NCBI GenBank assembly: GCA_051294905.1
Contig: CM119372.1
Location: 27,220,001-27,284,000, forward strand
Length of the DNA: 64,000 bases
Direction of reading: 5' to 3'
Source of the DNA: Botryllus schlosseri
Taxonomy: Eukaryota
The stretch's first letter is position 1. Every line of letters starts with the position of its first letter. The notes beneath the pieces are model-generated. The model was not told the origin of the DNA and searched no databases. It saw only the letters and a program-made list of their open reading frames with translations. The translations under genes were made by a program, and so were the position numbers. Positions 1-53,086 of this stretch are shown here, in pieces.

Positions 1-395
1 TATAAGTGATTCTATTAAAGTTTATATGAGGCTAGGTGCTGCTAAAAAATCACAAACTTGATTATTTCGGAATATAGAATAGATGACCAACTTCTTTCGT
101 CAAGCACCATAGGACCCATCATTCATACTGAAACTGTATACATCCTACAGTAAAATGGATGCGATTAACGATGAAGAATTTTATTCTTAAAATATTACAT
201 GAGATAAAACATGCGAACATCCATTATCTTGATAATGCCATTGCTATAGATGTCAGTCCGATTCCAACAAACACGAGTCCCTTCCAAACTTTATTGTAGT
301 CGAAAGCGGCATTATCAAAAAATCCTACAAAGCCATCCTGTAACAAAAATAGAAGATAATTTATAAATCCTAAGCGAAGCATGTAAATCACCTAC

Positions 396-869
396 CCATC
401 CTCCATTTCGCACTATCCACTTTAGTCTTCTGCTAGCAATGTAATTCCCAATTGTCTGTATGATAGCTTCTATATGCTCCCCGTGATGTTCATCCTCGTT
501 TTTGCGAGCAAGAATGCTACCGAGCACAAAAAGGCAGACAATCCTCCCCCAATTTTCTTTGGTATCTTTGAAAATTTCATCAGCTAGCATCAGGAACAGC
601 CGCTCATCGGGTAAATATTCTTTATATTTTTCATTGACTTCAACATCACTATAGCGGAGACGTTTGGAAACTGCGTTTAGGACTGTTCGATGTCGCTCGA
701 GCATTTCATCTCCAACTTGACGTAAGGTTCTCTCTGCTTTCGTATTTACCTTAACGCATGACCCGTCGAGTTCGTACATGATAAAATTCCTGGTCAAGGA
801 ATATGTTTCGGATATAATTTCATCCTTTTCTTCAGTGATCGAAGGTGCTGATACTCGTGATGATTCCAT
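396..869 (-). CDS. First coding exon of an anti-apoptotic Bcl-2 family protein, Mcl-1-like (BH3, BH1, BH2); the remaining exon(s) are not identified and probably lie left of the window
   Basis: ATG at 869 (MESSRV...). Motifs: BH3 TLRQVGDEMLERH, BH1 EIFKDTKENWGRIVCLF, BH2 WIVRNGGW. BH2 is followed immediately by the donor GTAGGT at 395, the intron position conserved after BH2 GW in Bcl-2 genes. The ORF extension to 315 is intron read-through. Confidence 0.9.
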
Positions 870-1974
870 GGCTTGAGGAGAATAGCGAGTCAAAGCTTAT
901 TTCGAGATCTAAGCTACTTTGGAAATGAGGATCCTAGGATTTGCTTAAGTTTCATCTATATCGTACAATGCGTTTTCGCGTTCCAGAATGACTTATGTCA
1001 ATGAAAAATAGCAAAAATTATCTTTCAATCCTTGATCATGGTTTTGTTTTTGAAAGATGTCGCGATGTCGGTATAATATTTTCTAAAACTTAAACTAGGA
1101 CGAAATCATGAATTTGTAGGACTTATGATTAACATATATTGTGCGCAGACAACTTTCTTACAAGAACTATGATATTCCTGTACTTGCGCGAATTACAAAT
1201 GCGGTATTGTAAATTAGTATATAGCCTACTACACAAAATCCGGAGTCTGAAAGTTTTTATTACAGTTGAGAAAAAGTACTCGATACGCTATATTTGAATC
1301 TAAAAATATTGCTTGGGGCTGTCTAGGTGCTTGGTAAGAACGCAGTAAAGGCATTGAACAGCATCAGTTGCGGGATTACTCGCATCAATTACTAGGTACA
1401 TAATAACGCAAGTTAACACAAGTTGGTTCGATCCTGAGCTTACGTGTACCAATTACTATAGCTACATAATACAACAACTTAACACTTGTAAAACACGATA
1501 TTTGGTCCCGGAGAACTGACGATATAGTTTCGAAGTCTCACTTCGTGGTATTACACTCATTTATCAGCAGTAAATTTCTAGTAAAGTACAATAAGTGATG
1601 ATGTCCGAGCGGCTAAACAAGTAAGTATCGACTTCTTCCGAGTACTCAAGTACGTTTTTTACCTACATGCAGCAAATATTCTCAAGTGTTTATGATATTG
1701 TACTGCTTCAAATCCATTATAGTTTCAGAATTAAGCAGAAAATACCTGGAATACTGACGTTTTACTTAGTCGGAAATAGGTACTTAGTAGGTAAATACGT
1801 ACTGGATGTGGGGTTGGAAGCCTAGACTAATAAGAGGAGCGTGATTGAAAATAGATGGAGGATCACTGGATTAAAGTTTACTGAATACCCCGCAATGTAA
1901 AATTAGTATATACTATACAAAATCCGAAGTATAGGTATGTGCTACGCTCCCGCAAAACAGATTCACGCAAATGT

Positions 1975-2313: not shown

Positions 2314-5300
2314 TTAGTATTGTCTTTTTGTCTTCGCAAGGAATTCCCACAGCAAAGGTAATATATAATCACTTGTTATTACATTTTCCATGGTGAAGGG
2401 TACTCTCAGGTCCATTACGGCAGCTCTAAACTGGCATCTTTCATTAATGTACTTTGCACACTCCATAATAACGTGCTCTGCAGTTTCTTCTACATGGCAT
2501 GTGGTACAATCAGGGGTATCGGAGCATCCAATTTTGTTAAGATGGGAGTTGAGACGACAGTGTCCGGTGCGTAATCTGAAAATGGTCGTTTCGGCACGGC
2601 GTGGCGTGGTAAAAGTAGGTAGTTTTGTGTATATGTCAGGGCAGAACTGTTTGAAATGTGCTCCAGAGGCGGTTTCAATGAAACGTTGGTTCCAGTCTTG
2701 CCTACAGCGACCTAAAATCAATGAGTTGGCCTCGCTAGAAGTAAGATCTACACTTTGGTCAGCTAAGTCATGGGCCGCAGCCTCTTTCGCAAGTCGGTCA
2801 GCGACTTCGTTCCCTTCAATACCACAGTGTCCTGGAATCCATACGAAAGAAATATCTCTATGGCTTTCATGTAAGAGATGGTGAGTTAGTTCTAATATTT
2901 GATTGGTAATATAGTTATTTTCACCAAGATGGTTTTTCAACGACAGCAATGCACTCAAAGAGTCACTCAGAATAGCAACTCGTTCGATGGAATTTTCTGA
3001 AATCCATATCAGTGCATCGAATATTGCTTTCAGCTCAATCGAGAAGATTGATAGGAGTTTCGAACATACTTTTGATGTTCTTATATTGCGATCGGGGATG
3101 TAGAAGGAGTACCCAGCACCGTTGATGTTTTTAGATCCATCGGTGTAAACTAGCATTCTGTTTGGGTATTGCTCAAAAATATAATCTCTGAATATAGCAT
3201 CGACAAGGTGACTTGGTGGATCGCGTCCGAGGGCTGTTTGTAATGATGTATCAATCATAGCGCATTTCAATAACCAAGGGCATATGGTTAGAGGGTGGTC
3301 ACCTCTGACTTGCAAATCATCCAATATTTGAAGTCGGGATAAGAGATTGAAAGTCACAAATCGGTCCGAGAGTAGATTGTACATTTCCTCCCATGAACCC
3401 TCCAATAAACTGCGTGCTGGGTTTGATTGTTGTGTTCTGATCTTGGAACGGTACTTGAGACAAAGATATTGGTGCCTTAGAAAAAAGGGCATGTCGTTAC
3501 ACGAGGCCTCTAATACGCATATAGGGGTGCTGGACATGGCACCGCAAGAAAGTCTCAGAGCTTGATTGCGGATTGATATTATTTTCGTGAGGTGTGATTT
3601 CGGTGCGAAGAAGTACGCTTCCATGCCATACTCTATGATGGATCTTATCAGGCTCCTATACAGGGTTAATAGCGTTCGAGTGGATGCACCCCAAGATGTG
3701 CCGGATACCATTCTGAGTAAATTCATGCGCTTTGCGCATTTGGATGCAACGTTAGATGTGTGTATCTTATAGTTGAGTCTTTTGTCAAAAGTGACACCTA
3801 AATATTTGAAGGATTCCACATACCTCAGTTGATGACTTCCAAGTTTGAGTACAGGTTGTGCATAATTTCGCTTTTTCGTGAAAACCATTGCTACGGATTT
3901 CTCGACCGATACCATAAAACCCCACTTTACACACCATCGATGGATCTGATCAAGGGATGACTGAATGTTTTGAGCAAGTTGGTCAACAGCAAGACCGGCC
4001 TCCCAAATGGCACAATCGTCCGCATAGAGCCCCATGTCTGACTCGATAACTGTTGGAAGGTCATTTATCATAATGCTGAATAACAAAGGGCTAAGCACAC
4101 TCCCCTGCGGAATACCATTTTCGGTGAGGAAAATGTCGGATAACGTTGTCCCGATTCGAACTTGAAAAGTACGGTCGTGTATGAAATTGTTGATCCAAGA
4201 TAGACAAGGCCCCGAAATACCCATTTCCCGTAATTTATGGATGACAGCAGCCCTCCACACCATGTCATATGCTCTCTCGATGTCTAAGAAGACAGCCAAG
4301 ACCGATCTTCCATTATGGATAGCTTTGTAAGTGGCATCGTGTAATCGGAGAACATGATCCAGGGCCCGCCGTCCCCGACGAAAGCCACTTTGAGCTGAGT
4401 GGAGTAAGCCGTGCTTTTCTAGATACCAAGATAGTCGCTTCATAATCATCGTCTCCATCACTTTACAGAGGTGGCTGGTTAAGGCTATAGGACGATATGA
4501 CTGTGGGTCTGATCGGTCCTTGTTTCCTTTGGGAATTGGAATAACAATCGAGTGCTTCCAGCTGCGAGGGACAGTCCCATTGCACCATGAGTTATTTATC
4601 ACCGAAAGCATACTGAGTAGGGCATCTGGCGGGAAGTTTTTGAACATGGAGTAGCAAAGAGTGTCATGTCCCGGGGACGTGTCTTTTTTCGACTTCAGTG
4701 CTTTCTCAAGCTCTGCAATCGTGAAAGGATTGTTCAGAAGAGTATCGTTCCTATGGTGTTCGACTTCTATGAGGAGTGAAGCTCTCAAGTCCAACCTATG
4801 ACGGTAATTCAAAGAGCTGCTACAACGTTGGAATGTCTTCGCTAGTATTTGTGCTTTTCCTCTTTCATCAGTAATATAATTGCTCCCAACTTTCAAAGAT
4901 GCCACCGAACTATTAGAAAGATTGCCCGAAATAGAACGGACGACACTCCACACTTTCTGGAGATTTCCCCTGGTGCCAAGTGTTTCACAAAAGGATCTCC
5001 ATGATTCACGTTTCGCTGTTAGTATCACTCGTCTGCACTGTGCACGACTACGTTTAAATTCAGCAATGTATTGCGCATCAAACGTTTGCCTCATTTTCAA
5101 AAACGCTGCCTTCTTCTTTCTCACAGCCCTGGCACAATCGTCGTTCCACCATGGTACTGATGAGCGACTGTGACTTCTCTTGATTGGAATGGACAGGCTG
5201 GCCGCACATAATACATCACTAGTGAATTTGTCGACCATGGCGTCAATGTTGTTCCCTAAATTTGGCACCTCGGACAGATCAAGGATCTGGCGAAAGCTCG

Positions 5301-6027
5301 CCCAATCTGCCTTCGAGAGGGCCCAAGTGAGCGGACGTTTGTTAGAGCGGGGTAGTTTAGCCAATAAAGATGTCAGTATGACAAAATGATCACTGCCTAA
5401 TAGGGAGTTTGTCACGTTGGTAGAGCACGAGTGTGCGATATCTGCCGACGCCAGTGACAAGTCGATGAGTGAGGCCCTGCTCACTGCGTTGTATGCAGTA
5501 TTGATGCGAGTTGGACTCGTTGCGTTCAGGGTTACCAATCCATGCCGATTTATCGAATCATACAACAAGTGACCTCTGCGATTCGAGTTTCCAGCACTCC
5601 ATGACCAGTGATGGGCATTGAAATCACCTAATATCAAAGACCTGTTGGACAGGTCACCCAAGAAGTCTAAGTCACCATCAACAACTCGGTACTCGGGAGA
5701 GCAGTATATGTTACAGATCCGCAAACCGTTCACTTCGATGCACAGCGTATCTATACCATCACCGGGTGACTGAATATCGAGTATTCGATAAGACAATTGC
5801 TTATTGATTAAAATGGCTAGCCCACCACTGCGAAGTGTTTTATCTTTTCTTTCCATGATGTACCCTTTAATCTTTGGAACATATTTATCAATAAGATGTG
5901 TCTCTTGAATTAACATAATATCAGGAGGCGTAGGGAGTTGTTCTATAAAGTTCTTCAGTTCAGGTAACTTCCTGTATATTCCTCTGCAGTTCCATTGCAG
6001 TATAAGGACACCAGCGTTCTTATACAT
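2314..6027 (-). CDS. LINE ORF2 polyprotein: APE endonuclease, reverse transcriptase, RNase H, C-terminal CCHC (1237 aa)
   Basis: APE: QWNCRG, QET, GDFNAH, GSDH. RT: YRPIALTS, QSGFR, FLDIERAYD, GIPQGSVLSP, YADD, KYLG. RNase H: YTDGSK, SDSLSAL, WIPGHCGIEGNEVADRLAK. Zinc knuckle: CTTCHVEETAEHVIMEC. Confidence 0.97.
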   Translation of the reverse strand: MYKNAGVLILQWNCRGIYRKLPELKNFIEQLPTPPDIMLIQETHLIDKYVPKIKGYIMERKDKTLRSGGLAILINKQLSYRILDIQSPGDGIDTLCIEVNGLRICNIYCSPEYRVVDGDLDFLGDLSNRSLILGDFNAHHWSWSAGNSNRRGHLLYDSINRHGLVTLNATSPTRINTAYNAVSRASLIDLSLASADIAHSCSTNVTNSLLGSDHFVILTSLLAKLPRSNKRPLTWALSKADWASFRQILDLSEVPNLGNNIDAMVDKFTSDVLCAASLSIPIKRSHSRSSVPWWNDDCARAVRKKKAAFLKMRQTFDAQYIAEFKRSRAQCRRVILTAKRESWRSFCETLGTRGNLQKVWSVVRSISGNLSNSSVASLKVGSNYITDERGKAQILAKTFQRCSSSLNYRHRLDLRASLLIEVEHHRNDTLLNNPFTIAELEKALKSKKDTSPGHDTLCYSMFKNFPPDALLSMLSVINNSWCNGTVPRSWKHSIVIPIPKGNKDRSDPQSYRPIALTSHLCKVMETMIMKRLSWYLEKHGLLHSAQSGFRRGRRALDHVLRLHDATYKAIHNGRSVLAVFLDIERAYDMVWRAAVIHKLREMGISGPCLSWINNFIHDRTFQVRIGTTLSDIFLTENGIPQGSVLSPLLFSIMINDLPTVIESDMGLYADDCAIWEAGLAVDQLAQNIQSSLDQIHRWCVKWGFMVSVEKSVAMVFTKKRNYAQPVLKLGSHQLRYVESFKYLGVTFDKRLNYKIHTSNVASKCAKRMNLLRMVSGTSWGASTRTLLTLYRSLIRSIIEYGMEAYFFAPKSHLTKIISIRNQALRLSCGAMSSTPICVLEASCNDMPFFLRHQYLCLKYRSKIRTQQSNPARSLLEGSWEEMYNLLSDRFVTFNLLSRLQILDDLQVRGDHPLTICPWLLKCAMIDTSLQTALGRDPPSHLVDAIFRDYIFEQYPNRMLVYTDGSKNINGAGYSFYIPDRNIRTSKVCSKLLSIFSIELKAIFDALIWISENSIERVAILSDSLSALLSLKNHLGENNYITNQILELTHHLLHESHRDISFVWIPGHCGIEGNEVADRLAKEAAAHDLADQSVDLTSSEANSLILGRCRQDWNQRFIETASGAHFKQFCPDIYTKLPTFTTPRRAETTIFRLRTGHCRLNSHLNKIGCSDTPDCTTCHVEETAEHVIMECAKYINERCQFRAAVMDLRVPFTMENVITSDYILPLLWEFLAKTKRQY

Positions 6028-7399
6028 TTTGTGGAACTGCGCTCAAAAGGCTTTTCAGTGATTCAGGGTCGAAAGAAACGCTTAGCCACTTCTGAGCCGC
6101 GGAGGTAATCAATGACGGAAGATCGATATCATCGCTTGAACGACAAGTTTTAGCTGTGAGGTTCACAATTTCGCATATGAATGCGAAGAATAGTAACGGA
6201 TGTGTAGAAGACATGATAGATAGAATTGACGAGTCGTGATCTGATTCGGACGGGGTACTGGCGGTCTCGGTGGCCTCGTTTACATGAGAAGAGGTCTCCA
6301 AAAAGGATAAGTTCGCATCATTTGGAAGGGGTTGTCGCGGTGGACTGATTTTCGCCGAAGTTGACTTAGCAGAGGCGTTCTGACGTTGGTGTACAGCCTG
6401 CCGTCTATGTACAGCCTGACTATAAGTTTTACCGCTGGGAGTTGGCGACAATTGTGTATGTGAAGACGTTTCTGGTGCTTTTGATTTAGCATCGACATGC
6501 GATACTTTGGATTTAGCATCGACATACGATAGACTCTCTCGTTCTCGAATTATTTGTATTTTGGCTTCCCTTTTATACACTGGGCACCCACCGTATGCTG
6601 CGCTATGGGGCATTTTACAATTGACACACCTCTTTTCCTGATCGCACTGATGATGTTCATGCTCATGACTCCCACATTTGGAGCACGTTTTTCTTCCGCC
6701 GCAATTTGCCTTCGTGTGACCAAATCGATTGCATCGGTGGCACCTCAATGGGGGAGGATTATAGGGATTGGTCTTGAATCGAAGATATCCAATATACAAC
6801 TCATCTGGAGGTGTTGGAACATTAAACCCGAGCAGCATTGACAAACTAGCAACATAGCCATCAGTGGACTTGCGTTTTAGACGTTTAGCAAAGCACACGT
6901 GTGATTCGCTGAGGAATTCAACAACTTCGTATTCTGACATGTCAGCTGGCACACCTCGGATAACGGCCCTAGACGCATGCTGATGCAGTTTACTCTCATC
7001 GTAACATCCCGTATTAATTGGAATTGACACTACTCCGTCCGTAAACATATCTAGAGATAGGAGCTTATCGGCCTGCATGCGATTGTGGCAGGTGACGAGT
7101 AAGTCTCCCGACGGGAAGACACGAATCCCTTCATAATTACCAATCACTGCGTGTAAGCACTTGTTCACTGTGGTAGGATGATAGTGTTTCATCTTCCTAT
7201 CTTTACCCTTAACAACTATTTTCAAATTTTCGGTGCGAGCTGGATCGGCTGAGCGGCCAGAATAGTCTGCATCAGACTTATTATTCATTGCTTTCAATGG
7301 CGGACTATCACAATCAGACTCGCTTTGTGAACCCCTTTTACTGCGTTTTGACGTGACAACAGTAAATTCCATGTCATCGTTACCAACATCCGCTGCCAT
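6020..7399 (-). CDS. LINE ORF1, gag-like nucleic-acid-binding protein with three zinc knuckles
   Basis: First ATG at 7399. Knuckles: CHRCNRFGHTKANC, CSKCGSHEHEHHQC, CVNCKMPHSAAYGGC. The stop overlaps the ORF2 start by 8 nt (ATGTATAA). Confidence 0.93.
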   Translation of the reverse strand: MAADVGNDDMEFTVVTSKRSKRGSQSESDCDSPPLKAMNNKSDADYSGRSADPARTENLKIVVKGKDRKMKHYHPTTVNKCLHAVIGNYEGIRVFPSGDLLVTCHNRMQADKLLSLDMFTDGVVSIPINTGCYDESKLHQHASRAVIRGVPADMSEYEVVEFLSESHVCFAKRLKRKSTDGYVASLSMLLGFNVPTPPDELYIGYLRFKTNPYNPPPLRCHRCNRFGHTKANCGGRKTCSKCGSHEHEHHQCDQEKRCVNCKMPHSAAYGGCPVYKREAKIQIIRERESLSYVDAKSKVSHVDAKSKAPETSSHTQLSPTPSGKTYSQAVHRRQAVHQRQNASAKSTSAKISPPRQPLPNDANLSFLETSSHVNEATETASTPSESDHDSSILSIMSSTHPLLFFAFICEIVNLTAKTCRSSDDIDLPSLITSAAQKWLSVSFDPESLKSLLSAVPQNV

Positions 7400-7760
7400 C
7401 AGGCGGGATGGTGGCTTATACAGCAATTAACTTCTCACTGCACGTAATCCTATCCGAGTACCGCTAGAGTATTACTACAAGTAAGCCTTTACACCAGAAG
7501 ACCAAAACCTCGCAACAAGCTCTCGACGCTGATTGCAGGATGAGCTGCTCAATCTAGACACGTCCGCACACCTCGGCGGTCAGACGCGAATGATCGGTAT
7601 AGAACTGCGTTGGTTTTAAAGGTGTTACATCATGAAATGTCTGACGAAATTTGGTATGGTGTATTTTCATATTGTCCTACAACTGCGTACCAAGTTTCAC
7701 GGTGGGGATTAGCGTGATAAAAGGTAGTTTTTCGCTCTTTTTTTTTTTTATTTTTTCTTA

Positions 7761-10515: not shown

Positions 10516-12083
10516 CAGTGGTTCCCAACCGGGGAGGAATTCCCCCCTTGGGGGGAATTTTGCAATTTTTAGGGAGGAATTCCATATTGAAACTGTAACG
10601 GATTTCCCAAATTGTTCATGTCCGAACAGTCATGTAGTCAACCAGTTATATCCGAACTTATGCTCCTTATGGCTGTTTTTTTGCTGAAAGTATGTTCAAA
10701 TGCTATTTAAAATCTCTTTTTCACGTAAAAATCCCCCCTTGTTTTTTTTAACTAGTTCAGATGTGCTGCAGTTCGCAAGCCGATTTTGTAGGCCAGCGAC
10801 GGCCTCTCAATCAAATATATCATAAGCGAGCAAATGTCGTGTCGAATCTATCACAATAAGGCCTCTAGTGAAAGTATTTATCTTATATATTTTCAAGTCA
10901 ACATTTTTAGACAGTGACAAAATATTCCAGCGTCATCGATTCAAGTCAAAGAGATCAGTAGGCTTCCTTCATTTTTGGTGAACAGCTACCCGATCAAACA
11001 TAACACATGTTAAACTTGGTGCAATGTTGCTGAAACGGAATGGGTGCCCTAAATTTTAATCCGGCAGGAAATCTGATCGCGTGTATGTTATATATCAGGG
11101 CTGCGACCAAAGTCACGAGGCTCCGAGTCACAAGTCAATCTGACTTTCATAGTTGACTCGAGTCAAGTCGAGTCATTTTCAATTCATCATTGAGTCAAGT
11201 CCGAGTCCAAGTCACCGAGCAGAGGTTCGAGTCGGAGTCATGGTATTATGACTCGAGTCCGAGTCCAAGTCATTGTGTTGACTGTTCAGTTTCCAGTTGA
11301 AGTCTTTGTAAACCCACTTTTTATAACTCTGTTTGGTGATATTGAATGATTTGGATTTATGTCACACTAATTTTCCTCACTTTGAGCAGTTTCTTGTCGC
11401 ATTTTCAAGTACCGGGACCAATAGACGAAATTCCAATAGGGTGGTCACTTTACTGTTCTTCGAAATTACACTGAAATGTCGGTCTTGGCCGTCTTATAGT
11501 CTCGAGTCATATGGCTTGGTTCGAGTTATGCACAATGACTCGAGTCCAAGTCGAGTCAATACACAAATTATCTCGAGTCGAGTCGAGTCGTTTCCATATT
11601 TTGAGAAAATGGCTCGAGTCAAGTCGAGTCATCAGAAAATGGTGACTCGAGCCGGACTCGAGTCTGATCAATTCTGCTATATATGAAAGTACCAATATCA
11701 TTGGCCAAATGCATACGCAAGCTTGAGTAAGAAATGACGAGACCAGTAAATTTATGCATACTGATTTTTCACAGCAGTTATATTAGCGTTTGGTGCATGG
11801 TAAGCCGAAACACACAAATGGAAGTGTAGGGGTCTGTTCTGTCAAGCCTTCCAGAATTTGTTTGATTGGGACCAAGACCATTGTTTTTGGAGGTCTACAA
11901 AGTGTTGTTACAGCACTGCTAGGAACAAACAGTCGGTACCGGCCGTCTTATTCTTCAGTCAACAGGTGTTTGCGCGGTAAAAATGACGTTTTTTTATCAT
12001 CGGGCAGATTTTTCCCAAGGGGGGAATTTTGGCTGAAATTTCGGCCAAGGGAGGCACGAGATGAAAAAGGTTGGGAACCACTG
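10516..12083. mobile_element. Non-autonomous hAT (Buster/Charlie-type) element in a GPCR intron
   Basis: TIRs CAGTGGTTCCCAACC...GGTTGGGAACCACTG; perfect 8-bp TSD TGGTAAGG. Confidence 0.9.
11096..11676. mobile_element. GACTCGAGTC-rich hAT-type MITE nested in the 10516-12083 element, with a deletion near its right end
   Basis: Starts CAGGGCTGCGACC and is collinear with the copies at 42656 and 59618. Flanks TTATATAT/CTATATAT match at 7 of 8 positions. Confidence 0.8.
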
Positions 12084-13123: not shown

Positions 13124-13757
13124 GTATGATTTAAAATATTAGGTGACATGTTGCATTAACGTGATGTCATCATTTGTCCAAAATCGGGGCGTTACAATTG
13201 GGGTCGAGATATATACCGTGCAGTTTCGACTATAGAGCAGGGTTTGTTAATCCTGAGTCCAAGAAACCATTGGGGTTTTCGGGCTAGTTTTAAGGGGTCC
13301 ACAAAAGGCCAACGTTGAAACTACAATTGTAAAACTACATTTAGCTATTGGACATCAGTCCTTGTGTTTGACTTGCGTCCTCATTCGTCTCGTTTTTAGT
13401 GCTCACTGCGGGTTACAAGCAAAAATAATGAGCTTTGTTTAGTCACCAGGAATCTTAGACAATAAATAGACCAGTATACAATTTTAGGGCACAATGATTA
13501 GGACTGGATAGACATTGAATACCATTTTTAATCATAAGCTTTCCAAATTCAGCGGTTAGAGGGAATATAGGCCTAATATACAAAATTTACTCAAAGATCG
13601 TCCTTTGATTTGATATTACCACACCGGAAGCAATTCGATTCCTGTTGTCTCATTCATTCTGCGAATTGGTTGCAATTGGTGAATCGTTGCATGCAGCTGG
13701 CAAGTGTCCAGTTCACCTATTTCTCAGAGACAGAACTTTCCTTTTGTACATTTGCAG

Positions 13758-13912
13758 AAAGGCGTACAGCAAGAAAATCCTAGCCTCGTTGGCTACGCGC
13801 AAACACAGAGATGAACAAGGCACTGCCATGCAACGCAAGCTTACCAGGATTCTTGTATCGGATTTTATGTGCTGGATGCCAATCTGCATAATGGGATTTT
13901 TGAAATTGGCAG
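13758..13912 (+). CDS. GPCR exon encoding ICL3 and TM6
   Basis: Acceptor TTTGCAG (13757), donor GTATAC (13913). Encodes KAYSKK...AMQRKLTRILVSDFMCWMPICIMGFLKLA, with the LGR-type DFxCWxP motif. Confidence 0.92.
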
Positions 13913-14111
13913 GTATACATGTTTGGGAGAATGGGATGATATGATAATCAAGAATAAATGCTAGCAAAATCGGATGCAGGTGATATGTTGCATGTTCAAT
14001 TCGTATATCAAACGAAACGGTATAAAGCCTGGCCGTTAACATAACATTGACCCCATATATCAGTCTACGCCTACGCACACATAGTGTCATAGTAGCCTAT
14101 ATGTTTCTAAC

Positions 14112-14270: not shown

Positions 14271-14377
14271 CCCTTCTGTTCCGCCGCATCTCCAAGCACA
14301 TCGATAGTGCACATATGGAAATGAACTATCATCCTACTATACGACATTTCGTTTCATATTCTTCCATTTCATTTCAG

Positions 14378-14685
14378 GAGTAGACATCCCGACTGACGCG
14401 TATCTTCCATCGGGACTTCTGATTCTTCCAATAAACAGCGCTCTTAATCCATTCCTGTACTCAGATCTTCCTGACGTCATTTCAAATCGAGGACAAACGA
14501 TTGTGATCTGGCTTACGCAATCATTTCGTAGATTGAGTAGTGTGAGAGGTCTGCCGATGAAAGCGTATATCTATGAACAATGTACTAATTATTTTGCGTT
14601 AACAGAGTCGACAATAGCAAATTTACCTCGAGAGCAAACGGTAGAAATGGCTGTAAGCGGATCAAAAAGACACCATATTGGGTGA
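14378..14685 (+). CDS. GPCR last coding exon encoding TM7 and the C-terminal tail
   Basis: Acceptor ATTTCAG (14377). Encodes GVDIPTDAYLPSGLLILPINSALNPFLYS..., with the LGR-type LPINSALNPxLY motif. Open to TGA at 14683-14685. Confidence 0.92.
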
Positions 14686-37800: not shown

Positions 37801-40298
37801 AGTTATTGCAACTATTATGCTTGATTTGGCTTTTGTATCATTGGTCCTCACCCTATGAATTTTATAAATGAGTCGAAAAGAGAAATTCCACTAAATGAAG
37901 GTATTGAATAAAAGAATATGTGCCATTGTACGCTGCGTCTGATGTTACAAGTCATCAGATGCCGGCCATCCTAAAATAGATTTTATGTAGATGCTAGCGT
38001 CGTAATCGAACACTATCATGTATTGATGGATCGAAAGTGACCAGAGTAGGCATATGTACTAATTACTATCAAATTTATAATGCACTTCAAACATGTATAA
38101 ATAGGACGCATTGCACAGCACTATAGCATTCGGTATTAGAAACTACAAAGGACACTGGCGTCTGTGTTCAACTAAATCATGACATACTGTCATTAACTAC
38201 ATGGAAATCTATTCAGACAAGTTACAATAATAATAATAATTACACTTACTTAACCCGATATATGCTGTTACGTAACCCGGAGCATCACAGCAAACAGCAG
38301 AAACATTCCGGATCGATTGATTGTTATTTAACCGTAAATGATTGACAGGCCACGCAGTTACCGTTCTATCCCATTCATATTTCCATGATCCCTACACTTC
38401 GCATTAAAGAGGATTGCTGGTTTGTTGGTGTTGAAGGTTACAAAAAAAATGTATGCGTCGATCGAAATTTATTTTACACCCTTCGAAACAGAAAACATCT
38501 GTCAAAGACCCCATAACTGGCGCACGTCGAAGTTTTTTTTGTGTGAGGAAAGATTTTGCCAACATGCAATTGTAGACAAATTCATGGAGTGTAATCATGG
38601 AATTTCCACGGAGAATTTTTCAAGTATTTTTGGTCAAAGTGATCCATCGGTACCATATCTGCCATACACAAAGTATTTAGGCGTCTATTGCTGCAAACTG
38701 AGATGGGGATGGCTTTTCTAGTGAAACTGCGTTAAGCGTGGAATATTTCCAGCGCTTCGACCTCGGAGAAACAATATCCGTTAATTGTCGGAGATATTAT
38801 CCCAAATTCAACGAGTCAAAATTATTCCTTTTTGATAGTGACGTAAATATTATCAAGGGTGGATGACAATGTTCGGATTCTGTAATAACCTCCTGTATCA
38901 ACGAAATTCGGCGAGACTTCTTCCCATTCTCAAGCTTGCGCGGGCATGCTATCGATCCATTCGCATGTCTGATGCTGACGTGGAAGCATACAGAAAAGAC
39001 CTTGGAGAACTGTTCAATGACATGACAGTTCCATTTCTGGGTATATTTAATTGGAAATTTCTGACTGGATAATAAAATAAATTCATTCTATGAAATTTGC
39101 GACCGTCGAGTTGTTGAAAAGCTTAATACAGTGTAGAGCAATTTTGAGATAAGTCAATGTTCAGTATTTCGCATCAATCGTTCCGGATACAGAAATGAAT
39201 CTGAGCGAAACACCTTACCCGAGATCCGTAGTATTGGAGTAAAGTTTTTCCTCTATGTATTTCCCAACTCGTATTTCCGATAGATCGCAGCTCATATTTC
39301 ATAAAGCATATAGTTTCAGTGACGTGTCAAAGATTATGATTCCAAACGGATACCTACTGCGGGACGTGGGTATTTGAGATTGTTTTCAGCAAAACTGATC
39401 ACCAATATCATGTGGACGATGAATATACACCAGCCTCATGCTGTTAGTGTTATTGTCTAACTGTTAGTTGTTGGATAACTGTTTGTTCATTTGCATTCAT
39501 CATAATCAGAACATGCATTCGGTTCAATGATATAGCCTCCGTATTATGACTGCTGAATAGAACGCGATGTCGCGGGTTCCAATAATTTAATATCGTATGG
39601 GTCGACGATCACTAATACAAGTCGTCAGAAGGTTCATGCTGCATTTAATTACGATCAACATATTTCAACATGTTTAAAAGCAGCGTCTTAGATCACATTT
39701 TTTGAATGAAACCCTACCGATGAAGCTACAAAGATTGTCTTGCGGATTCCGTGGCTTCTAATAGGGGAATCAAACACTTGGTGCGTTCCAAAGACGCAAT
39801 ATATTTCGAATATAAACCCGTTTGCAGCGTGGGCTACTTCACGACTGAAGCTAGTGGGGAGGGAGTTACATACTAAGATTTGGTAAGTGTACCCATCAGG
39901 TATTGCCTGAAAAAAGTCAGTGAAACTTAATTCCTAACACCAGCTATACTTTGTTCAACAAACTGGATTGACACGTTTGAGTCTCCAGCCATTTCTCTAG
40001 TTCAAGAAGTTTGGATCTGTGAAGGGTATCATTACCTTTCGTCTTATACTTCCTCTTGCGTAGAAGAAGTGGAGACATCTGGCCGTGAAAAAGGTGGGCT
40101 TTATTTTTCACGACATTCTGCATAATGTGTCATGTGTTCTCTGTATCGTGTGGTCAATAAATCTTTTGTTTCATCCTACTCGCCACCTATCAAAGCGGAG
40201 CGGCAGAAAGTTTCGAGACCAAGTTTTATTTAACTCGATTATAACTGCGTTGCAATATTTACAATCAATGAATTTTATTACCGGGAAATAAATCAGCT

Positions 40299-40514
40299 CT
40301 ATGCACCGTATCCATCTTGGGATTCTAGCGGCTGGCTAATTCCTTGCAAATGCACAACTCCTCCAAAGTCACAGCTTGACGAGGATGGAATAGCATCGTA
40401 GTAAGCTTGGAACACAGGGCCAGCGCCCACACGTAGACGGAGCTGATCGCAGGAGTTGGGGTCGGTGGAGCAGCAGGATGTAACGTCGGACGCAGAGTTG
40501 CATTCCTCCTGAAC
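40299..40514 (-). CDS. Terminal coding exon of a minus-strand gene; Cys-rich, resembling the C-terminal half of an X8 (CBM43) domain
   Basis: Acceptor TGTCCCAG (40515), phase 0. Encodes VQEECNSASDVTSCCSTDPNSCDQLRLRVGAGPVFQAYYDAIPSSSSCDFGGVVHLQGISQPLESQDGYGA*. GC content is higher than the flanks, and there is a minus-strand AATAAA at 40279-40274. Confidence 0.55.
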   Translation of the reverse strand, partial: VQEECNSASDVTSCCSTDPNSCDQLRLRVGAGPVFQAYYDAIPSSSSCDFGGVVHLQGISQPLESQDGYGA

Positions 40515-41454
40515 CTGGGACATGAACGACTGAATGAGATAATGCGGTAATGAGAATAAGATCAATGAATATATAAATATTGTGCAAACAAAATAGGATA
40601 ACGTCTCAATGAGCCTAGAGTAGAAGTCGACCGCGCATGAAGTGGTATTTACAGTATTCATCAGAAAGAGTGTTGGCCCGAGGTAAATTACCACAGATTT
40701 GAAACAATCTAAATACCTACAAAGTCACGATCACAGCGTCTAATGGCAGTGTAGTATTGTTTAATATGGCTCATAATATTTACCATTTCATATGCTGGTA
40801 AATACATTATCCAAAATTTATTATCCACTTGCTACTTCTAGCTCTACGAATTTCGCAACATTTCGAGTGGGCAAAATATTGTTTTACATTCCAATATCGT
40901 ACAGCAGACCTGGGCAAAATGCGGCTCGCGGACCAAATGCGGCCCCGAAGCTATTCTGTGCGGCCCGCGAAAGGTTGCTTGGAATTCAAAACATAAAACC
41001 TTATTTTTGAATGACTAAAACCATGGGCTGTATCAAATGAACAGGAAATTCGTTTACTTTGAAGCATGTTCATTAATATACCACGATTACGCTGCCCACG
41101 TACCTGGCATGCGTAATCCAGCTTCAAAATAGAGGCAATGCGGCAAAGTATGAGTAGCAATTGAAGTCACTAGAAATAACTCGTTCTGTATAGCTTAGTT
41201 CAGACCTTCCTCGTTGACATTGTCACGTTACGCATTATACGGTATTAGTTTCAATTTGTGACGTTATATGTTTCCACATCTCTAATTCGTAAAACCAGTC
41301 AATCAGTAGTCGCGAATACTATATGACTCACCAATCACCATATATATCATAAATAAAGGATTAACGAGCATGTCAAAAAAAAAGGCGAAAACTGAAATTC
41401 AAAGAAGGTATATAATTTAGAGCACTAAATATTCGCATAAGTCACGGGGTAAAC

Positions 41455-42642
41455 CAGTGGTTCCCAACGTGGGCGATATAGCCCCCCAGGGGGCGATTTG
41501 GCGGTCTAGGGGGGCGAAAATGACGAAGGGGGCGATAGGGGGGCGAAAACGAAAGAAGGGGGCGATAAGGGGCGAAAACAACGAAGGGGGCGATAGGGGG
41601 GCGTTGGCACGTTAAAACGGCTATATTGGAGTCGGGACCGTAACTACCGCACCCCAAATCCCCCAATTGGGAGTGGAGGGCCCGAAATCGAAGGAAGCCC
41701 AATTTATTTCGTGAATTAACATGAATGATCGAGTAATTTTTTAGAAATTCATGCGACTTTTTCAAAAGTTTTCGCGCTGCGCGCGATTTAATATTGTCAT
41801 GTATCTTGATGTTGGGGTCCCCATCACCCAACAAAAATACGCATGATTTATGGAAATGGGAGACTTCGGCGTCGGCCATTACTGCGCCACGACGCACCAA
41901 GACATATGAAGTTAGAGGCCATGAAACATGCGACTCCGAGAAGTGTGCCAGAACGATCATCAGCGTGAAGACCTAGTCCGAAAGGAATGCCCTTGTGCTG
42001 ACCGAAAACTTCGATATATATACAATATATGTTTAACTGTCCATTGGCGCCTCAATGGCTGGCGTCGAATGTTCCTGTCCTGGCGACCTTAACCCTACAG
42101 GACAAATGCCATACCGCAAGGAAAAAATTATTTGACAGTAAAGAAATACCAATATGAAATCATGTGCGTCTTTTAGTTTGGTACGTTTTGACGATTTCCA
42201 TATCTTCTGACATAGCAGATATCGGAGGTCACGAAATATTATCATGTAAAGAAGTCAATATAAAAACGATTCCGTCGAAGATGTTTAATTATTATTTAGG
42301 GGTCATACCTTTTCCAACATATCATACCGACCATATTGACCGATTCCAACATGAATTATATAAATTTGTCGCGCTTCGCGCGTTTAGGCGAAATACGGTG
42401 ACTCAACAAACAATACATGAAATAGGGTGGGCCTATAGCTGATATGTAGCGACAAAAAGCCCACTGGCTAAGGGGGATCTGGGGTTTGGTTTATCACCAT
42501 ATGGGGCCAAAGATCAACGTTTTTTTTCGGGGGGGGGGGGGGGTGACGAAGTGCTGTTTTTCGGTTCCCGATATTTTGGGGGCGATGATCGGTGTGGAGC
42601 TTCAAAAGGGGGCGATGAGTCGAAAAAGATTGGGAACCACTG
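41455..42642. mobile_element. hAT non-autonomous element, family A (uninterrupted copy)
   Basis: TIRs CAGTGGTTCCCAA...TTGGGAACCACTG, GGGGCGA subterminal repeats, perfect TSD GGGTAAAC. Confidence 0.92.
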
Positions 42643-42655
42643 GGGTAAACCCATC

Positions 42656-43239
42656 CAGGGTTGTAACCAAGTCAGAAGGCTCCAAGTCACAAGTCAATCT
42701 CACTTTTATAGTTATGACTCTAGTCAAGTCGAGTCATTCCAATTCACCACCGAGTCAAGTCCGAGTCCAAGTCAGCGAGCAGAGGGTCGAGTCCGAGTCA
42801 TGGAATTATGACTCGAGTCCGAGTCCAAGTCATTGTGTAGACTGCTCAGTTTCCACTTAAAGTCTTGGTAAACCCACTTTTTATAACTCTGTTTGGTGAT
42901 ATCGAATGTTTCGCATTTATAATATACCATTTTCCTCACTTTTAGCAGTTTCTGGTCGCATATTCAAGTACGAGTACCAACAGACGAAATCTCAATAGTG
43001 TGTTGGCTTCGGAATTACAATGAAATGTTGGTCTTGGCCTTCTCAGTCTCGAGTCAATGACTTGGTTCGAGTCATGAGCAATGACTCGAGTCCAAGTCGA
43101 GTCAATACACAGATTGACTCGAGTCGAGTCGAGTCATTTCCGTATTTTGAAAAATTGACTCGAGTCAAGTCGAGTCATCAGAAAATAGTGACTCGAGTCG
43201 GACTCGAGTCGATTCATGACTCGAGTCATTACAACCCTG
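42656..43239. mobile_element. GACTCGAGTC-rich hAT-type MITE, complete
   Basis: TIRs CAGGGTTGTAA...TTACAACCCTG; perfect TSD AACCCATC. Confidence 0.92.
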
Positions 43240-43456
43240 AACCCATCCTTTCAGTTTTTGCTGATCATGTCGCCGAGATTAAGGATTTTAATGAAAGTCG
43301 GTCTTAAGACAAAAGTACGAAACACTGGGTCAAGGTAGGGTGAAGTTCGGAGAAACTGCAAGCTTCGCTCAACATTAAGGCCATTTATCCTACACATTGC
43401 TTGGAAGGCAGCGATCAAGAAAATAAGCTTTGTACTATTGCATACACATTCCAGTG

Positions 43457-43736
43457 CAGTGGTTCTCAAACTAGGAGACGTGAAAGCATCAGAAGGGTGG
43501 CGCGAAGCCAAAGTTCACTGATATAACCCCAGCTAGTTGTTGCTCTGTGTATTGTCCAACTTTGATATTTCACAATTCTCTCATCAACAGCCATAATCTC
43601 CATGCAATCAAACTATTTGTTGGGCTTGCTAGCATTCCGGTTGCACTTTTTAATAGTTTGTGATATCATGATAAGTGGGCGCGAAATTGTTCACTATCAT
43701 AGAAGGAGTCAAGCCTAAAAAGTATAAGAACCACAG
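43457..43736. mobile_element. Short degenerate hAT MITE
   Basis: Ends CAGTGGTTCTCAAACT...AGTATAAGAACCACAG; no clear TSD. Confidence 0.55.
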
Positions 43737-44836
43737 TTTTAGATTCTTAATAGAAGAGCGTGGATAGGGGAACGAGGGCTAAAATGTATCATATTTAACA
43801 TAATATAACTTCCTCATTACCTAATATCAACACATTCACTGAGCAGCATTTATTACCAATGTAATTTAAAAATAAAATTAAAACACGCTGGAGAATATAG
43901 CTAAATTTTATCACTCGGCCCGCCAACGTATATATTTTTTTCATTTGGCCCACGGAGGAAAATAATTGCCCACCCCTGCCGTATAGGAGTGCCCTAAGAA
44001 CGCAAATGGTTTTGCACATGAACGGGTAAGCTGAGCTCAGATGCTAATTGATTGGTTGGTACTAGTAGTGTCTATCGGCAAATGACAACTGATATAACAG
44101 ATAGGCGCAAAGAAGAACGGAAGTCCAGTGAGTATGAAGCATCAAATTTTCATTCCGTGGAAGTATAGGGACAAAAGAAGTTTATTTCTTACTAACCTAG
44201 GAGTCGTACACCCCATGGGGTCGTTTGCCCATTTCCTAGGGTCGCGAAGGAAATAAAATACCACTGATTACTACAAGAATGACAATTACTCGGGGGCTAT
44301 CGGCGGCTCATTTCTGAAAATTTTAGACAAGGTATCAGATCAGTCGAAGCGTCATTTTGATGTGAGCCAAATGTAACGTAAGAATGGTGTCTGGCCATTA
44401 CTATGACGACTAAACGATCGGTGCATCGAAACCAATGGGAAAACTACGAGCGAGTCGGCAGCGCTATGTGTTAATAGTGTGCATTACGGTTATCCAAAAT
44501 TTGGAAAATCTTAAAAATACTCCGTGACTTGACTGTGTCTCATTCTATAGGTCATTAATAAAAAACAACAATGAACCTGAAAGAAGTATACAGGAAAGCC
44601 GTAAAGATTTGGGGCAAAGCGTTTGAAAGTAGCTGCTCAAGAATGGTCGCGCCACCGACCATAGAGCGGCGAGAAGACTAGTAATCAAATAACCACGGCT
44701 CTTGATTTGCTAATCGGCTATGCTTCAAGGATCACGGCAGCAGCAGCTTGCTGATTAGGTGTTCAAGGAGTCAGTCTGCTACCGGCGGGGATTCTGAATG
44801 CGCATTGCTGGTAGGTGGGCAGATGAGGATTTAAGA

Positions 44837-45647: not shown

Positions 45648-46102
45648 ATTGACGCTGGAAAATAAATTCAAAGCACGAATCCGAACACGAACATAATCCA
45701 CGTATCGAAACCTGTATTACTAGCCATATTTCTAAAACATTATGTCGGTGTACAACATCACATTGTTATTGCATGCTGGTAACCGTAAAGTCATGGAGGT
45801 TGCTAATTTCGACATATTGACTCTGTGGTCGGCTAAAGCACGAACGGGGACACACACACATGTGTGATTATCTCTTACACACACCGGGACACACAGTATT
45901 CGTCGATTTCCAAAGCGTACATTTCGATAGACAAGAGTCTATTGTTATTTCATGTGGTTAACCGACGATATAGATGCGATGCTACCGACGTGGGTATACT
46001 ATGAAACCGGTTGTCGTGTATATTTTCGTTACTGCTAGTTGTAATCAATTACAAACTGTCGCTAACACAACAAATACCGAATTGATAGGTGTGGTTGTCA
46101 GA

Positions 46103-46640
46103 TTTCAAAACGAAAATGGTATTTTTACTCAGGTAAGCATCACATCTCCAAGTGAAAACGGTATTGTTACTCAGGGAAATGATAGTTTTCCAAACGAAAA
46201 TGGTTTATTACTCAGGGGAAAAATATATTTCCAGACGAAAATGGATTGTTACCCTAGGTAACGACAGATTTCCAAACGAAAATGGTTTGTTACCCAGGAA
46301 TAAGAAAGATTTTCAAGTGAAAACGGTATTGTTACCCAAGGATAAGATATATTTTTAAGTGAAAATGGTTTGTTACACAGGGACAAAATATATTTCTAAA
46401 CGGAAAGGGTTTGTTACTCAGGGAAAAAAATATATATTTCGAAACGAAAATGGTTTTGTTACTCTAGGAAACGATAGACCTACAAGTGAAAATGTATTGT
46501 TACTCTGGGTAAACGATAGATCTCCAAAAGACAATGGTATTTTTACTCAGGTAAGGGCGGACCTCCAAGGGTAAATGGTAATTTTACGCAGGTAATTGTC
46601 AGTTGTCCAAACGAAAATGATATTTTTACTTGGGTAGGTA
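46103..46640. repeat. Minisatellite, ~13 degenerate copies of a 41-42-bp unit
   Basis: Approximate consensus TTTCCAAACGAAAATGGTTTGTTACTCAGG followed by ~11 variable nt, repeated head to tail. Confidence 0.9.
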
Positions 46641-52728: not shown

Positions 52729-52730
<2 letters not shown>

Positions 52731-52789
<59 letters not shown>

Positions 52790-52793
52790 CCAA
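52731..52793 (+). repeat. (CAA)n microsatellite, probably a retroposon 3' tail
   Basis: About 20 CAA units; the SINE at 55007-55306 ends in a similar CAA tail. Confidence 0.85.
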
Positions 52794-53086
52794 CATATTT
52801 GAACTGAAATCAATTTCAGCATTTCAAAATGCTTTACTAAGCGTTCTTCCAAAATTTCAAATCAGTTCGCGGGCCGTGTGTTGGTGACCCCTGGTATGGT
52901 ATGGTGTTGAATTGCTAATTTCACTATGGTACTAAAAATACGTTTTACTGAAGATAGCAGGGGTTGCTGTTTATAAAAGAGGTGTTTTAAAACACTCATA
53001 TATGCCAAAGATGTTTTAACATTCCAAGATAACACCGTTTTGTAGTTTGTTCAATTGTGTAAATAATGTCGAATAAACATGTAGTA

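Follow-up and report, generated by a model that had tools for sequence, protein, structure and literature searches.

A terminal coding exon on the minus strand of a 64,000-nucleotide stretch of Botryllus schlosseri DNA (contig CM119372.1, hereafter the window) is homologous to the last exon of the tunicate GH16 glucanase genes, whose products end in two cysteine-rich modules predicted to be X8/CBM43-like. Here it is proposed, with a probability of roughly 0.6, that this copy does not work and is a headless duplicate, or remnant, of a sister gene that is expressed. The locus matters less than the module that it partly encodes, the copy itself being probably a leftover.

Terminal exon and its glucanase family

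The exon has 71 codons followed by TAG, with no stop, frameshift or acceptor damage, and is directly preceded by a pyrimidine-rich tract ending in ...tcccag (Table 1). The initial annotation had described a terminal spliced exon, and its acceptor, 71 codons, stop and two AATAAA signals were all verified on the minus strand, with the cysteine-containing motif that it pointed out present in the translation. Although both AATAAA signals exist, the poly(A) of the related, expressed transcripts follows the second and not the first, at 40211, 14 bases past that signal (9 reads, run X18). The exon corresponds to residues 31-101 of the second module (module 2), of which the first 30 residues are missing, and carries five of the eight core cysteines of the module. 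Its codons 54 and 65 are Val and Ser, where most homologs keep tail cysteines. A joint loss of one disulfide through these two changes is possible, and the expressed version may share the loss of both cysteines, as none of the read differences listed falls on these two codons.

Table 1. Features of the exon and its flanks in the window (positions are those of the window)
Feature	Position	Strand	Basis
3' UTR-like stretch, AATAAA at 40279-40274 and 40230-40225	40211..40298	-	sequence and RNA reads
Terminal coding exon (tunicate GH16 glucanase), covering the last two-thirds of X8-like module 2 and the C-terminal tail	40299..40514	-	sequence, phmmer, alignments
Splice acceptor, AG at 40516-40515, and pyrimidine-rich tract	40515..40560	-	phase-0 intron position conserved in the related gene L001, and RNA reads
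Intron-like flank, unique within the window, without RNA depth and without trace of a penultimate exon	40561..40904	-	sequence and RNA reads
Repeat nest upstream of the exon (context only, not part of the gene)	40905..43978		sequence

A phmmer search with the exon peptide against 1.84 billion proteins returned seven matches, three of which are tunicate-type proteins with E-values (2.8e-26, 6.6e-19 and 4.0e-10) that place the similarity beyond chance. The remaining four (P0005-P0008) were discarded as long repetitive proteins in which 20-43 residues matched; three of them were scanned and contain fibronectin-type or other unrelated repeats. The top match is a 456-aa GH16 protein of Styela clava (XP_039256442), which has the C-terminal DGYGA in common with the exon, and a search with the tail of this protein added Clavelina, Ciona and the protein P0011. 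When aligned to the last 71 residues of the homologs, the exon is identical to P0011 at 50/71 positions, to XP_039256442 at 44/71, to Clavelina at 41/70 and to Ciona at 32/69. The homologs have a hydrophobic N-terminus, followed by the GH16 domain and the two cysteine-rich modules, and the EXDXXE motif (EIDICE or EIDIME) is intact in all seven that were checked.

The gene structure is also conserved. In L001, the last exon starts at the same valine in phase 0 (YAD/GT...AG/V), after an intron of 622 bases, and RNA reads splice an upstream exon ending in GPDNVYAD to the start of the exon (VYAD/V); the whole Ciona gene spans 3.7 kb. The homology over the whole exon and the conserved phase-0 intron position back the earlier proposal of the last exon of a glucanase gene. 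The catalytic partner is GH16, not GH17 or GH72.

Both XP_039256442 and the Clavelina protein XP_076823108 appear in the GH16 tree published by Tamura, Oda-Ishii and Satou in 2026 (PMC13390645), who assign the family to GH16_3, likely acquired horizontally from an unclear donor, and give expression of the Ciona gene in the stomach only. A foreign origin, one of the ideas first attached to this exon, agrees with that paper for the catalytic part; the module itself may have been either transferred or anciently retained. A role in the body polysaccharide matrix, also suggested at first, found no support, and a function in the tunic matrix was dropped because the stomach is the only site of expression given for the Ciona gene.

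Transcripts and status of the window copy

Four RNA runs from four studies, all from other individuals, were compared with the window over 39400-41440, with 3-13% of each raw run read. The reads cover 40300-40508, continue by splicing into the upstream exon and end in the poly(A) given above; therefore, a minus-strand mRNA of this type exists. Spliced, polyadenylated transcripts about 97% identical to the window copy occur in the four studies. Splice junctions had been proposed as a test of the exon; these transcripts are joined at its acceptor position, but none of them has the window letters at 40365, 40418 and 40436. The window letter was seen in 0/186, 0/148 and 0/128 raw reads at these positions, respectively, and the X1 contig sides with the reads at all three; the change at 40418 places Pro in the window against Ser in the RNA. 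The transcripts also differ from the window at 40509-10. In run X20, loose ends at 40360 and 40495 reveal the expression of another, more distant paralog of the glucanase, which retains the GGVCYL cysteine that the window exon is without.

Coding differences between transcripts and window amount to at least five sites (at most 8 of 215), against at least 9 of 88 bases plus a 3-base insertion in the UTR, the coding divergence being the lower (Fisher p 0.006 to 0.05). At least two amino-acid differences were found, compared with about eight expected for an exon without function ever since the split (P 0.011; worst case 0.17). The lower number of coding than UTR changes and of amino-acid changes indicates that the exon was constrained for most of its history, and from these sequence comparisons it would be either an exon constrained until recently or a diverged allele of a working gene. 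Neutral decay of the coding sequence, a mark of pseudogenes, was not seen, and the intact frame together with a pN/pS of about 0.2 (5 sites, p 0.09) implies a recent loss at most.

The upstream exons were initially reported as not identified. None was found here either, and they are truly absent from the window rather than merely hard to see. Five full-length homologs used as tblastn queries against the window recovered this exon only, as did an HMM search through its 3,488 ORFs of at least 12 residues. There are no GH16 catalytic exons and no first module (module 1) on the same strand within the window, including the 23.5 kb upstream of the exon, and the tail of the upstream exon known from RNA is not in the window. 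A penultimate exon severed precisely at the transposon boundary (40904) was considered and dropped, having no match above shuffled controls. Without upstream exons in the window, this copy is probably not the working gene.

The alternative that this is the working last exon of the expressed gene, in a diverged allele whose remaining exons are located over 23.5 kb further upstream, beyond an intron swollen by transposons or a mis-join of the assembly, is considered less likely. The intact frame, acceptor and poly(A) signals, the signature of purifying selection and the near identity to spliced mRNA all agree with a working exon. The RNA samples also differ among themselves (at 40398 and in 3 of 30 UTR letters), so that the species is polymorphic, and in the upstream 23.5 kb, which is repeat-rich, no other gene was detected that would stand in the way of a long intron. 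Of the 153 non-repeat ORFs with at least 58 residues beyond 7.5 kb, 150 were compared with Pfam and gave two faint matches under the cut-off, a scan that small exons of other genes could escape. However, the same intron is much shorter in L001 and the window is free of N or gap. Furthermore, in one mixed population the chance of any one allele being set apart from all the rest would be 0.10 for five alleles and 0.03 for nine, unless populations are structured; fixed differences between window and RNA could also come from a diverged population. That the exon has been taken over to end another transcript, or provides a distant glucanase gene with an alternative last exon in an unsampled tissue or stage, is highly improbable, since no read has the window letters or joins the exon to other window sequence in the 2 kb compared and the part-module has an odd core-cysteine count and is not predicted to fold alone, even though its acceptor and poly(A) signals are intact and only a small part of each raw run was read.

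Under the preferred reading, that of a headless duplicate or remnant, this copy would be derived fairly recently from a functional gene and would have lost, or never received, its 5' part; its translation would yield only a part-domain that is predicted not to fold. The intact genes, in turn, would encode a secreted stomach endo-beta-1,3-glucanase, an activity described for GH16_3 in PMC6827312. By analogy with plant CBM43, for which beta-1,3-glucan binding is reported in PMC9099982, the two presumably disulfide-bonded tail modules may anchor this enzyme on the beta-1,3-glucan of food algae or fungal walls.

The repeat nest next to the intron-like flank consists of an outer element with ends alike at 10/13 positions and a possible target duplication (6/8), presumably an old hAT-type non-autonomous element, and a younger inner element (41455-42642) with perfect 13-base terminal repeats and an 8-base target duplication. 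Next to the inner element there is a TGACTCGAG-rich repeat (42656-43239), with copies at 11096 and 59618. The window also contains a Bcl-2 family coding stretch at 318-896 (-) (Pfam Bcl-2, E 9.9e-22) and an intact-looking LINE retrotransposon at 2317-7426 (-), in which a 468-aa frame with CCHC-like knuckles comes before a 1,242-aa one containing endonuclease, reverse transcriptase and RNase H. Two stretches at 13609-13941 and 14308-14682 (+), without a Pfam match at E 0.01, resemble the final transmembrane helices of a receptor of the LGR/GRL101 type. A degenerate tandem repeat of roughly 84 bases is found at 46099-46630 and a long CAA microsatellite at 52729-52797.

The tail module and X8/CBM43

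The exon peptide alone matches no Pfam family. This includes the X8 profile (PF07983), against which the initial annotation had proposed to check the 71-aa peptide. There is also no word-based homolog among longer proteins, no Atlas cluster and no PDB sequence for the peptide alone, and a model of the exon product (pLDDT 53, pTM 0.27; best structural Z 2.8), in which the first 30 module residues are missing, gives no usable fold or fold match. The lack of any match for the exon in the Pfam, PDB and fold searches is explained by its content, the last two-thirds of module 2 and no more, and for the same reason the whole module of the homologs is the fair test of X8 membership.

In the homologs, Pfam X8 and no other family matches the four full modules present among seven homolog rows (4/4), with a best E of 7.5e-4 and 20.5 bits. 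This falls below the curated cut-off of 25.7 bits, which is why annotation misses the tunicate module; the alignment spans positions 2-74 of 76, with both domain ends included. A search with a profile of the module, in which 8,000 candidates were scored, gave 107 proteins, 98 with PF07983 and nine of tunicate type, and the named PF07983 proteins among these matches are from land plants; the same profile had no match among PDB sequences. The module 2 of P0011 was modelled with AlphaFold2 (pLDDT 84). With this model, Foldseek ranks Gel4 (E 0.059) and then Ole e 9 first, with no match at E 0.001, and VIA-align over 48,161 chains places Gel4 first (Z 7.0, rmsd 7.0, 76 aligned), followed by Ole e 9 (Z 5.2, rmsd 3.4, 71 aligned) and Gas2 (Z 5.1, rmsd 6.8, 76 aligned), the latter two in ties with unrelated helical chains. 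Such weak scores are normal between X8 branches, since a plant X8 used as query reaches the fungal Gel4 at E 0.074 only. A plant X8 profile scores the exon at 25.3 bits, against at most 14.6 in 2,000 shuffles, and hhalign gives a probability of 98.5, both being partly circular, as the plant set was chosen with the tunicate profile, and neither is relied on here. The Atlas features of the whole module include X8 at 0.76, which is a lead only.

The scores are modest and the methods agree, and the whole tail module is predicted from the homologs to be X8/CBM43-like, although not a Pfam member. The X8/CBM43 claim made for the exon is therefore retained for the whole module, by Pfam, profile and structure searches, and not for the 71-aa peptide alone. 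The opposite view, in which the module is a tunicate invention resembling X8 only through a short motif and a common helical arrangement, seems quite improbable. It would fit the score under the Pfam cut-off, the lack of a PDB sequence match for the module profile and Z values under 8, common for helical models, as well as the eight core cysteines of the tunicate modules, compared with five in 95/98 of the (trimmed) plant segments. Nevertheless, X8 is ranked first by the sequence profile, the protein search and two structure searches, the match reaches both domain ends, and weak scores are usual between X8 branches. The eight core cysteines may recall the four disulfides of fungal CBM43 given in PMC5753161, a likeness that is taken as a lead only.

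A tree of 18 tunicate-type and 25 of the 98 plant segments separates the plant X8 from the tunicate modules by a branch of 2.29 changes per column (100/100), with the module 1 sequences as one group; it names no donor because fungal, algal and amoebozoan X8 are absent from it. Among 41 metagenome loci, plant-type X8 accounts for 38 and one tunicate-type gene for three. A single-pattern scan of prokaryote genomes, in itself weak evidence of absence, passed one of 27 pattern matches, which was rejected as lying inside a methyltransferase. GH16-plus-X8 proteins beyond the tunicate-type sequences were not found in the searches made here. In the partial protein P0021 (208 aa), the end of a GH16 domain leads into just one X8-like module, which has a long branch and falls with module 1 in the tree, and this protein could inform the origin of the GH16-X8 fusion. 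The related locus L002 has a 59-base tandem duplication at 5220-5340, inside the penultimate exon, when compared with L001 and L003, which is either an allele or an assembly error.

X8/CBM43 has been described from plant GH17 and fungal GH72 proteins. No report of an animal X8/CBM43, a tunicate CBM43 or GH16-CBM43 in metazoa was found in the literature searched, which was mostly outside subscription journals; the CBM43 literature matched with tunicates or with GH16 and metazoa concerns fungi or seagrasses only, and the accessible text of PMC4033164 holds no such report. The architecture of GH16 with tandem X8-like modules looks undescribed. It is tentatively suggested, as a possibility, that the tunicate modules are the first X8/CBM43 domains of any animal to work in glucan binding, and that the stomach enzyme combines two foreign parts, each gained on its own: a microbial-type GH16_3 domain for catalysis and an X8 module of eukaryotic, possibly fungal, type, which was doubled after the fusion. 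A divergent animal X8-like branch fused to GH16 widens the range of the family, and the X8-like modules account for the unannotated back 40% of the published tunicate transfer candidate, for which they provide a second marker for donor tracing. The way in which filter feeders hold on to algal or fungal beta-1,3-glucan and digest it could also be tested directly in this system.

Comparison with known systems

Like unprocessed partial pseudogenes, that is, duplicated fragments keeping their intron flank, the locus consists of a single exon that keeps its acceptor, its intron flank and a UTR, has no 5' exons and lies beside a transposon nest, and the transcripts stem from a near-identical version. 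Unlike them, the exon has no inactivating change and shows signs of recent constraint, and the parent copy is not seen directly.

Compared with the tunicate endo-beta(1,3)-glucanases of GH16 subfamily 3 (Ciona KY21.Chr9.350, Chr9.347 and Chr7.133; Styela clava XP_039256442; Clavelina XP_076823108), the exon is homologous to the last exon, is 46-62% identical and has the intron position and C-terminal end alike. Paralogs of this glucanase are present in Ciona and seemingly here too, whereas the present locus is the last exon only. The main text of PMC13390645 treats the GH16 domain alone, without X8, CBM or carbohydrate-binding, and its supplement file has no mention of CBM43, X8 domain or PF07983.

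With X8/CBM43 (PF07983; C-terminal domain of olive Ole e 9, 2jon; Aspergillus Gel4, 8pe1/8pe2; yeast Gas2, 2w61), the tunicate module shares a predicted form, a small domain of helices that strands from the N- and C-terminus close. It differs from these in its eight core cysteines, which include a CC pair, in its score under the Pfam cut-off, and in being joined in tandem to GH16, rather than to GH17 or GH72, in an animal. Common to both are the C.VK start, the WAC/YAC motif and the F..YY...CDFGG end and, as in the X8/CBM43 proteins, the tunicate module is appended to a beta-1,3-glucan-active enzyme.
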